A DNA stretch of 64,000 nucleotides from Saprospira grandis DSM 2844 (GTDB taxonomy: Bacteria; Bacteroidota; Bacteroidia; Chitinophagales; Saprospiraceae), in contig CAMDAB010000004.1 in assembly GCA_945888475.1 (NCBI GenBank), positions 4,678 through 68,677 on the forward strand. Reading direction: 5' to 3'. A program made the position numbers and the translations under genes. Positions 22,320 to 22,624 of the stretch are shown here, piece by piece (positions within the stretch are counted from its first letter, which is position 1; the number at the start of each line of letters is the position of its first letter). The notes below the pieces were generated by a model, which did no database searches, was not told the DNA's origin, and saw nothing but the letters and a program-made list of their open reading frames with translations.

Positions 22320-22624
22320 GCAGAGGAAAGAATAAGTCTCGTAAAAATGACGAGATGAAGAGAAAAGAAACGAAGTTCCGTGAATCGAATTGTAGCGTAT
22401 GAAGTCTATTCGTTATTCGTTATTCGTTGTTCGTTGTTCGTTATTCGTTGTTCGTTGTTCGTTGTTCGTTATTCGTTATTCGTTATTCGTTATTCGTTAT
22501 TCGTTATTCGTTATTAGTTGTTCGTTATTCGTTATTCGTTATATTTGTCTTATGTCTAATGTCTTATGTCTTATGTCTGACAGTCTAGCGTCTTTATTCT
22601 AAAGGTCTCAAGTCTAAAAAAGGT
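22320..22624. repeat. Mosaic intergenic element, site 3: hairpin TCTCGT-aaaaatg-ACGAGA, an inverted R motif (GAAACGAAGTTCCGTGAA), about 20 tandem TTCGTTA/TTCGTTG heptamers, then a GTCTTAT/GTCTAAT satellite
   Basis: Tandem heptamers at about 22411-22545. The predicted ORF 22399-22602 is an artefact of this satellite. Confidence 0.8.

Follow-up and report, generated by a model that had tools for sequence, protein, structure and literature searches.

A strain-specific heptanucleotide array in an intergenic spacer of a freshwater Saprospiraceae bacterium

Introduction

Intergenic heptanucleotide repeats have been known in cyanobacteria since 1990, the year in which Mazel et al. are said to have described the short tandemly repeated repetitive (STRR) heptanucleotides of Calothrix and Nostoc, and the very small dispersed repeats (SDR) of Nostoc punctiforme were reportedly described by Elhai et al. 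in 2008. The best-documented protein reading a 7-bp register is the omega protein of pSM19035, a ribbon-helix-helix protein that binds 7-10 contiguous WATCACW heptads cooperatively. In this study we analyse a tandem array of the heptamer TTCGTTA at 22409-22541 of a 64-kb stretch of DNA (contig CAMDAB010000004.1 of assembly GCA_945888475.1, positions 4,678 to 68,677; the whole stretch is called the window, and positions are window coordinates unless stated otherwise). By comparing closely related strains, we arrive at the view that the array is probably a dispensable, strain-specific expansion.

The cyanobacterial STRR are mentioned in PMC4692102, and their use for fingerprinting in PMC5088731. 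MacGregor 2015 (PMC4679880) described TAACTGA direct repeats with a patchy distribution across marine Beggiatoaceae, some cyanobacteria and five Bacteroidetes; close relatives of Gramella and Aequorivita keep the gene neighbourhood without the arrays, other heptamers occur in those spacers, and the Saprospiraceae are not mentioned. Rehm et al. 2015 (PMC4692102) reported GGGAATC/GGGGAYT heptamers in Xanthomonas and Nostoc, as intergenic arrays of 2-26 units that vary greatly in length and sequence between close relatives at the same gene pairs. According to Mrazek et al. 2007, as relayed in PMC4679880 and PMC4692102, heptanucleotides are the commonest long simple repeats in prokaryotes, and polymerase slippage was proposed for them. 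The REP/BIME/REPIN mosaic elements, in turn, are spacer mosaics of short conserved motifs that include palindromic units (PMC3116915). Since intergenic heptamer repeats have been described in several lineages (PMC4679880, PMC4692102), the statement with which our analysis started, an earlier reading of the bare sequence (the original prediction) that called such arrays unusual in compact bacterial genomes, is only partly true.

Results

A 19-unit heptamer array between two convergent genes

The window stems from an uncultured freshwater member of the Saprospiraceae (Bacteroidota), and its closest genomes are Saprospiraceae metagenome-assembled genomes (MAGs). Its sequence also exists, without differences, as ENA contig ERZ27280300:k141_1749545. 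The window encodes type IX secretion sorting domains and a GldM-like domain, which fits Bacteroidota, and its Pif1-like helicase protein is 98% identical to that of a Lake Mendota MAG labelled 'Saprospira sp.', 92-81% identical to those of other freshwater Saprospiraceae MAGs and 66% identical to that of Saprospira grandis DSM 2844. The array lies in the spacer 22316-22624, between an acyltransferase gene (PF01553; 21734-22315, + strand) and the gene for this Pif1-like SF1 helicase (PF05970; 22625-23899, - strand), each of which has its stop codon toward the array. Parsed unit by unit on the + strand, 22409-22541 consists of 19 tandem heptamers: 13 TTCGTTA (A), 5 TTCGTTG (G) and 1 TTAGTTG (x), in the order A A G G A G G G A A A A A A A x A A A from 22409, the TTCGTTG variants being clustered in blocks. 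Tandem Repeats Finder reports the same array at 22407-22542, with period 7, 19.4 copies, 93% matches and a score of 223, and on the strand of the Pif1-like gene it reads TAACGAA. The satellite of about 20 units that had been proposed near 22411-22545 is therefore real, with 19 units. An independent assembly of a sister sample (L002) holds 19 units too, with one C>T change as the only single-nucleotide polymorphism (SNP). At 136 nt the array is also shorter than the assembly k-mer of 141, a value we take from the 'k141_' contig names, and its order of variant units is unique.

Period-7 arrays of at least three copies cover 720 of the 7257 intergenic bases in the window, as compared with a mean of 1.4 and a maximum of 23 bases in 50 dinucleotide-preserving shuffles, where the copy number never exceeded 3.3. 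Periods 5, 6 and 9 cover no intergenic bases at all, and period 8 covers 85. Consistent with this, the autocorrelation of the intergenic DNA peaks at lags 7, 14, 21 and 28 (0.337, 0.316, 0.309 and 0.303, against ~0.28-0.29 elsewhere), and the coding DNA of the window displays 3-nt periodicity alone. The further satellites of 7-nt periodicity that were claimed for the intergenic DNA are thus borne out. Judged by what characterises long simple repeats, the array is built of head-to-tail units within the 1-11 nt range (period 7, 19.4 copies), and its length is beyond chance (19.4 copies, and 720 nt of such arrays, where shuffles stay within 3.3 copies and average 1.4 nt). Its unit, not being a multiple of three, lies outside coding DNA, as do the mosaic arrays listed below, which sit between long open reading frames (ORFs); A-rich GAAAAAA tracts at 38417 and 38762 are found inside an unannotated 141-aa ORF.

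The array itself is covered by an ORF of 67 aa at 22399-22602 (+ strand), which the original prediction regarded as spurious. We agree: its translation is that of the repeat, with a 21-nt period that yields a periodic YSLFVIR, and the ORF is missing from every relative without the array. The TTCGTTA unit is stop-free in all frames of the + strand.

Along the spacer, a left block is followed by the TTCGTTA array, a GTCTTAT array and a degenerate GTCT tail. The left block (22316-22400, + strand) contains a hairpin module and a reverse-oriented GGAACTTCG-type module. The hairpin (22337-22355, - strand; TCTCGTCATTTTTACGAGA then CTTATTCTTT) is the only stable structure in the spacer and, with a T-rich tail on the helicase strand, scores as terminator-like there; next to it, at 22366-22389 on the - strand, lies a degenerate, reverse-oriented copy (GAAACGAAGTTCCGTGAATCGA) of the 20-22 nt box GCGCTTCGCGGAACTTCGTTTC. 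Directly after the TTCGTTA array come 4.7 units of GTCTTAT/GTCTAAT (22546-22578, + strand), and the degenerate GTCT-family tail (22579-22624, + strand; GTCTGACAGTCTAGCGTCT...GTCTCAAGTCTAAAAAAGG) reaches the helicase stop. Relative to shuffled sequences, the spacer as a whole forms poorer folds (z of +1.2 for DNA and +2.0 for RNA), and the array has less stable structure on both strands. No Rfam family matches the spacer, the only Rfam matches in the window being an SRP RNA and a cobalamin riboswitch, both distant from the arrays, and a scan for promoter-like sites found no excess over shuffles.

Pif1 helicases act on repeats that are difficult to replicate, and a meaningful pairing of the Pif1-like gene with the array was therefore considered. 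It was rejected, because the gene is also present in array-less relatives and has homologues across many phyla, and we treat the neighbourhood as a coincidence. Homologues of this helicase with 47-49% identity are found in Candidatus Thiomargarita and Candidatus Parabeggiatoa (loci L029, L042 and L049), lineages that also bear heptamer repeats; because homologues exist in many other phyla as well, this co-occurrence of helicase, heptamers and lineage is likewise put down to coincidence.

The spacer is refilled from strain to strain

Alleles of the spacer were gathered by exact-protein look-ups and a genome scan, which gave, besides the sister sample of the same strain (L002), the relatives L167 (ERZ27280226) and L168 (GCA_947485595.1), L164 and L165 (Logan assemblies), L003 (a Lake Mendota MAG) and, more remotely, L084. 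In L167/L168, with flanks 98.1-98.5% identical to those of the window, the first 85 nt, corresponding to the left block, are retained at 98.8% (83/84), after which the spacer continues with (TGGTAAT)n, CTTGATAC units and a palindrome. The L164/L165 allele, with flanks at 96.4-97.5% and an acyltransferase protein at 100% identity, is 217 nt long and made up of (TGGTAAY)~9, the 22-nt box, CTTGATAC and the palindrome, with no TTCGTTA. In L003 (flanks ~95%) the spacer is only ~85 nt long and array-less, and in L084 (~82% on the acyltransferase side) TGGTAAC units lie within a longer higher-order repeat. Spacer length among strains thus takes values of ~85, 217, 246 and 309 nt. The strain variability that had been claimed is confirmed by the presence and absence of the TTCGTTA array among relatives of the same species, and the locus amounts to a natural experiment, with at least four unrelated fillings at 95-98% flank identity next to non-repeat spacers that are 99-100% conserved.

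The borders of the replaced block are sharp. On the right, homology between the window and L167/L168 breaks within the final ~12 nt of the helicase gene, with QFRR* versus QQHY* as the resulting C-termini. The right border of the window allele, the GTCT-family tail, is homologous to that of L164 and L003, so that the allele joins a left border shared with L167/L168 to a right border shared with L164/L003, the middle being unique, a combination that indicates recombination inside the spacer. As an observation on the gene itself, block replacement reaches into the last ~4 helicase codons (22625-22640 of the window; 3026-3037 of L167/L168), where the endings QFRR*, QFSR* and QQHY* occur.

This turnover is specific to mosaic DNA, the non-mosaic spacers being conserved. 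Between the window and L167/L168, the non-mosaic spacers 21527-21733 and 23900-24099 are 99.0% and 100% identical, and the mosaic spacer 28223-28585 is only 79% identical to that of L167, with module-sized indels. A second kind of change is visible between clpP1 and clpP2, where the window and L167/L168 are 99.6% identical save for one extra CTTCAGA unit (+7 nt): the (CTTCAGA)n array has 3 units in the window and 4 in these two 98%-identical strains. Upstream of the clpP2 start, moreover, the unit strings differ among strains with an identical ClpP2 protein. In the proposed comparison of strains for unit-number polymorphism, the neighbouring CTTCAGA array differs by one unit and the array at 22.4 kb has 19 units in both samples that carry it; the idea of a copy-number-variable locus needs to be amended, since variation there consists mostly of the wholesale replacement of module blocks and goes beyond changes in unit number. 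The strain set thereby separates two processes, one-unit slippage and block replacement.

Contigs of the relatives repeatedly stop inside arrays or at their edges (the ends of L165 and L171, the starts of L175-L177). MAGs of this lineage can consequently be expected to fragment at such spacers and to miss arrays that exceed the k-mer; in practical terms, these arrays break short-read assemblies of the lineage and yield spurious ORFs with heptapeptide periodicity. Exact-protein look-ups with the MVD, aminotransferase, AhpC and FabA-like genes returned the same strain only and no further alleles, and a metagenome scan with the helicase returned only two close, partial loci (L084 and L085). In L003, positions 1-100 of that locus (reverse strand) contain, after the heptamer array on the clpP1 side, what reads by eye as the start of an IS3-type-transposase-like frame (MSKIITKIRKHRRFSEEFK); this candidate frame occupies the place of clpP2 in the window.

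A shared vocabulary of modules

The pieces of the spacer 22316-22624 recur in at least 10 other spacers between 8 and 47 kb, and the window contains at least 16 heptamer arrays in ~10 spacers. The original prediction had held that each locus uses a different heptamer, which is contradicted by the recurrence of whole unit families across spacers. TTCGTTA units are found again at 13620-13636, 13679-13717, 13807-13824 and 13900-13914; the GTCTNNN family, including CTGATGT, which is GTCTGAT in another phase, at 13.64-13.95, 22.55, 28.45 and 40.62 kb; the CYTGATA family at 13.95-14.03 kb and 28.5 kb; and the TTCTRAY family (TTCTRAY/TTCAGAY/TCTGACT) at 24.9-25.06, 29.8-30.07 and 31.2 kb. Among the remaining modules, a 16-nt palindrome (CCGATAGCTATCGG) has 6 sites in the window and a stem-loop, TCTCGTC-loop-GACGAGA with variable loops, has 7 (8026, 8095, 24918, 29837, 38912, 38955 and 48287, the copy at 38955 being degenerate and read by eye). 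The 20-22 nt box has 5 sites, with forward copies at 13960, 13994 and 28507 and a related copy at 8067-8095, and the vocabulary further includes the octamers TGAAAGGR and CAAATTTT. Palindrome, hairpin and box occur in recurring orders, as expected of a mosaic of the REP/BIME type. None of these modules was found in the more distant loci, and the vocabulary is confined to the clade of the window.

Within this vocabulary, TTCGTTA arrays keep constant company. At all five window sites (13.62, 13.68, 13.81, 13.90 and 22.4 kb), as well as at both sites in L003, they are followed by GTCTNNN arrays, and because every TTCGTTA array precedes GTCTNNN units in this way, we regard the two as one composite module. 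The other TTCGTTA arrays, four at 13.62-13.91 kb and two in the orthologous spacer of L003, are only 2-5.6 units long, which suggests that the copy at 22.4 kb is the expanded one.

The largest mosaic spacer, 13557-14028 (+ strand), holds TGAAAGGA octamers, the palindrome CCCCGATAGCTATCGGGG, the four (TTCGTTA)n-(GTCTNNN)n composites, (CTGATGT)n and 34-nt repeats of CTTGATA plus a GCGCTTCGCGGAACTTCGTTT module; its ortholog in L003 measures 196 nt, against 417 nt in the window, and is assembled from the same module types in other numbers. The clpP1-clpP2 spacer (24839-25060, + strand) combines TTCTAAT/CTTCAGA/TTCTGAY heptamers with one hairpin and two palindromes inserted into them. Between the divergent lpxD and aminotransferase genes (28341-28564, + strand), TGAAAGGG octamers interrupted by the palindrome are accompanied by GTCT heptamers, the 20-nt module and (CYTGATA)5, which stops 21 nt short of a start codon, and upstream of prfB (29820-30073, + strand) ~30 units of the TTCTAAC/TTCAGAT type, again with a hairpin and a palindrome inserted, leave 6 nt to the start codon. 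The arrays (CAGATTTT)4 and (TCTGACT/TCTGATAA)n (31166-31280, + strand) lie immediately upstream of a short-chain dehydrogenase gene, two hairpin modules flank (CTACCTT)4.6 at 38912-38974 (+ strand), and (TCTGATG)3.7 (40617-40642, + strand) is located just past the stop codon of a - strand gene. Away from 22.4 kb, heptamer arrays of the window end 5-21 nt ahead of start codons, in sense orientation.

Outside the clade, no heptamer arrays were found in the S. grandis locus (L008) or in the Aureispira loci. Period-7 arrays with other units are present in distant Saprospiraceae MAGs (L021-L024) and in a Candidatus Parabeggiatoa locus (L042), and period 7 is the sole favoured short period in several unrelated Saprospiraceae MAGs and Candidatus Parabeggiatoa loci, the unit differing each time. 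The S. grandis DSM 2844 locus has a repeat of another kind, a GC-rich dispersed element of ~170-200 nt that occurs in both orientations in at least 7 places within 21 kb, as judged by shared 9-mers (for example at 9600-9800, 11270-11470, 17000-17170 and 19000-19200 of that locus).

Palindromic modules are inserted into existing arrays

The strain alleles allow the order of events to be read for the small modules. In the clpP1-clpP2 spacer, a 21-nt hairpin (CATCTCGTCTGCAAGACGAGA) present in the window and L167 is missing from L164 and L003, where the heptamer string is uninterrupted, and a 23-nt block bearing a palindrome has the same distribution, being cleanly missing from L164 and L003. The palindrome upstream of clpP2 is missing in L175-L177, and L167 has an unbroken (GATGAAAG)~11 array at a place where the window array is shorter and split by a palindrome. 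Since modules have been inserted into arrays that already existed, the arrays were not seeded by palindromic or hairpin modules; the suggestion of the original prediction that expansion was seeded by mosaic-element modules fails wherever polarity can be read, the modules being discrete insertions into arrays. This locus family therefore shows small palindromic modules in the act of entering heptamer arrays.

Viewed as elements in their own right, the 16-nt palindrome (CCCGATAGCTATCGGG) and the 21-nt hairpin (CATCTCGTC-loop-GACGAGA) are clean presence/absence insertions among 95-98%-identical strains, at 24839-24861, 24916-24936, 25025-25040 and 29986-30001 of the window as compared with the loci L164, L003 and L175-L177. 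They behave like very small mobile elements and are comparable to the small dispersed repeats of Nostoc punctiforme.

Relation to described repeat classes

The array belongs to the known class of fast-evolving intergenic heptamer repeats, and it falls outside the sequence-defined families within that class, TAACTGA and STRR1-3. Its likeness to the cyanobacterial STRR is considerable: tandem heptanucleotides, several unit families in one genome, an intergenic location, many copies and variability between strains, with many dispersed intergenic arrays (at least 16, in ~10 spacers of 64 kb) as in the STRR. The host, however, is a Saprospiraceae member of the Bacteroidota and not a (heterocystous) cyanobacterium; the STRR1-3 units CCCCAGT, TTGGTCA and CAACAGT occur in the window as scattered single copies, none of them tandem among the Tandem Repeats Finder arrays; and here octamers, palindromes and hairpins are interspersed among the heptamers according to a fixed grammar. 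With the TAACTGA repeats the window shares intergenic heptamer direct repeats, several of which abut start codons in forward orientation. The array at 22.4 kb, lying between stop codons, differs in this last respect from those other window arrays, and its unit is also a different one, TTCGTTA (TAACGAA on the opposite strand); TAACTGA is represented in the window by 8 single copies and no tandem dimers.

The broader class of long simple repeats, as relayed from Mrazek et al. 2007, accommodates the array well, with units of 5-11 nt, lengths beyond chance, an intergenic location, a preference for heptamers and slippage as the proposed origin, but this class is purely descriptive and does not cover the module grammar and block replacement found here. 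The GGGAATC/GGGGAYT heptamers are G-rich and quadruplex-forming, in contrast to the T-rich, G-poor and structure-poor units of the window. REP/BIME/REPIN elements and SDR resemble the present spacers in being mosaics, the 16-23 nt palindromic and hairpin modules here appearing as clean insertions; they differ in that no transposase is seen in the window and that tandem heptamers rather than palindromes dominate its repeat DNA. The heptad arrays bound by omega are similar in consisting of contiguous 7-bp units in direct orientation, but they form a plasmid partition site and operator with one conserved heptad and an adjacent binder gene, as opposed to the many heptad types, chromosomal housekeeping context, lack of conservation and absence of any such gene nearby in our case. 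A full-text search of the papers available to us found no description of such repeats in Saprospiraceae, and the locus thus extends the intergenic heptamer class to freshwater members of this family.

Discussion

Taken together, these results make it probable that the TTCGTTA array is a dispensable, strain-specific, microsatellite-like expansion, produced by replication slippage within a lineage-specific vocabulary of modules that is also reshuffled by recombination. Its dispensability follows from the relatives of the same species that are array-less and have intact, near-identical flanking genes, with spacers of ~85-309 nt. The process probably had two layers. In the first, short intergenic modules (heptamer families, octamers, the 16-nt palindrome, the stem-loop and the 20-22 nt box) would be shuffled by recombination and small insertions, and a (TTCGTTA)n-(GTCTNNN)n composite resembling those at 13.6-13.9 kb would have become established in the convergent 3'-3' spacer. 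In the second, slipped-strand mispairing during replication or repair would have grown the TTCGTTA part to 19 units in 7-nt steps, with local TTCGTTG variants amplified blockwise. The spacer would also be reshuffled by recombination, either among strains or among module copies at dispersed sites, leaving each strain with an unrelated filling. Slippage-type expansion, as had been proposed, has its direct signature in the exact +7 nt step of (CTTCAGA)n and in the varied strings upstream of clpP2; for TTCGTTA itself we infer it from the blockwise arrangement of the variant units. Transcription through the spacer would give the helicase mRNA an unstructured, A-rich (UAACGAA)19 tract at its 3' side, ahead of the terminator-like hairpin. 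The array at 22.4 kb presumably has no sequence-specific function and would at most lengthen the 3' untranslated region of the helicase transcript. Most likely, then, it is a neutral or near-neutral, transient expansion.

Several observations speak against this interpretation. No unit-number variant of the array at 22.4 kb was found, and because the sole second copy, in L002, also has 19 units, ongoing slippage there has to be deduced from a neighbouring array. Because short-read assemblies break at arrays, the sample of alleles is biased toward short ones. All 16 mosaic heptamer arrays (13640-40642, ~27 kb) are T-rich on the + strand irrespective of gene direction, which pure neutral randomness does not predict; this could be explained by descent through local duplication. 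Finally, a role as functional leaders is quite possible for those other heptamer arrays of the window that abut start codons, and the absence of function proposed for 22.4 kb therefore does not extend to the heptamer family as a whole.

An alternative that overlaps with slippage in place, and differs from it in where the 19 units were generated, is that the array arrived ready-made within a small mosaic element, mobile or gene-converting (REP/BIME-, MITE- or cyanobacterial SDR-like), by transposition or ectopic conversion. In its favour, the composite has recurring ends, GAAG(T)CTA-(TTCGTTA)n-(GTCTNNN)n-AAAAAG (13.62-13.95 kb and 22.4-22.62 kb), and strains differ by the exchange of entire blocks along sharp boundaries. 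The 21-nt hairpin and the palindrome-bearing block, too, are insertions that a strain either has or cleanly lacks, and the vocabulary is spread over more than 10 spacers. All other TTCGTTA copies, however, have at most 5.6 units, which means that most of the 19 units must have been made in place; neither a transposase nor a REP-associated tyrosine transposase (RAYT) gene is present among the ORFs of the 64 kb; and around the block we saw neither terminal inverted repeats nor a consistent target duplication. We therefore consider arrival in finished form unlikely. Less probable again is a periodic binding surface, which the original prediction raised for a repeat-protein, be it DNA for a ribbon-helix-helix protein on heptads or a transcript for S1, Csp, CsrA or Rho with a role in 3'-end regulation or termination. 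The strict 7-nt register, as the sole favoured short period, could be read in this way, as could the TC (YC) found in most + strand units and the pyrimidine-rich, unstructured nature of the arrays (T 46%, A 21%, C 20% and G 13% overall), given that Rho and S1 prefer pyrimidine-rich unstructured RNA. The sense-oriented arrays 5-21 nt before starts, for which such binding may hold, recall the TAACTGA repeats, proposed as regulator sites (PMC4679880), and heptamer repeats are reported to affect expression in Nostoc (preprint, bioRxiv 10.1101/2022.06.06.494920). At 22.4 kb, though, relatives of the same species at 95-98% flank identity do without the array, others have TGGTAAT or nothing at the spot, so that neither sequence nor length is conserved, and the strand is poor in structure; the many unrelated heptamers in one genome argue against a single sequence-specific binder, and no candidate binder gene is adjacent.

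The uniform strand of the 16 arrays also hints at something more speculative, namely that heptamer arrays are the footprint or target of a dedicated 7-nt-register machinery, which filamentous gliding bacteria (heterocystous cyanobacteria, Beggiatoaceae and Saprospiraceae) would share or exchange, and the octamer/leader modules, whose pyrimidine-rich strand is always the sense strand of the downstream gene, would fit this as well. Array orientation is mixed in the loci of other lineages, uniformity being no general rule, and the uniform strand could equally reflect local-duplication descent or a strand-linked process; we regard such a machinery as improbable. The original prediction also saw a natural contingency locus, in which changes in unit number switch the expression of a neighbouring gene. 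Simple repeats are indeed mutational hot spots, the neighbouring array differs by one unit between strains, and promoter heptamer repeats are stated to tune expression elsewhere, for example TTTTGAT at Vibrio cholerae ctxAB (bioRxiv 10.1101/2021.05.14.444153). The array at 22.4 kb, however, lies past both stop codons of convergent genes, where gaining or losing units can alter neither a reading frame nor the spacing of a promoter, the flanking genes are of housekeeping type (acyltransferase and Pif1-like helicase) and not surface or restriction genes, and the unit count is equal in both array-bearing samples; phase variation at this site is hence very hard to credit. Equally far-fetched is that we are dealing with an assembly artefact or with a genuine protein-coding gene. 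Tandem repeats are mishandled by short-read assemblers, as the contigs that stop inside such arrays attest, and the ORF 22399-22602 does stay open over 67 codons, but two independent assemblies concur save for one SNP, on an array below the inferred k-mer with a unique order of variant units, and the ORF is a 21-nt-periodic translation of the repeat found in no array-less relative.

Additional observations

A dependence of array orientation on the direction of replication from an origin was considered and rejected, as the cumulative GC-skew minimum near 48 kb only tracks gene strand; matches to DnaA boxes in the window show no excess over shuffles and no clustering. The octamer and longer leader modules follow a different rule of orientation from the heptamers. 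At all five of their sites (8114-8166, 13547-13600, 28341-28400, 40363-40490 and 46877-46946) they are pyrimidine-rich in the sense of the downstream gene, and they comprise CAAATTTT, TCCTTTCA/CCCTTTCA and a 24-mer at 40.4 kb. In four cases (fmt on the + strand; MVD, AhpC and TPMT on the - strand) the leader abuts the start codon, the lpxD copy being ~120 nt upstream, and CAAATTTTCAAATTTTCAACATCTTTCATC is common to the fmt and TPMT leaders. Whereas the heptamers are coupled to the strand, these modules look coupled to the gene, in the manner of a 5' leader element.

Some features of the window are unrelated to the repeats. The release factor 2 gene (30080-31164, + strand) has, at ~30139-30146, the CTT TGA C of a classic programmed +1 frameshift site, and because of this frameshift ORF lists show only its downstream part (30235-31164). 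The cobalamin riboswitch (35511-35640, + strand) precedes two genes that have type IX secretion sorting tails, and the small SRP RNA is at 55417-55515 (- strand). Three tandem, overlapping genes for putative endonucleases of the Uma2 family (PF05685) at 59324-61182 (+ strand) are followed by Bro-N and RhuM-family genes at 61320-62661, a stretch that may be a small mobile or defence islet. The 827-aa protein encoded at 56680-59163 (+ strand) contains major vault protein shoulder and repeat domains (PF11978 and PF17795), by which it is predicted to be a bacterial homologue of the eukaryotic vault shell protein, and in L006 (~4875 onward) and L007 (~2080 onward) a vault-like gene, its similarity judged by eye, is found directly downstream of the helicase.

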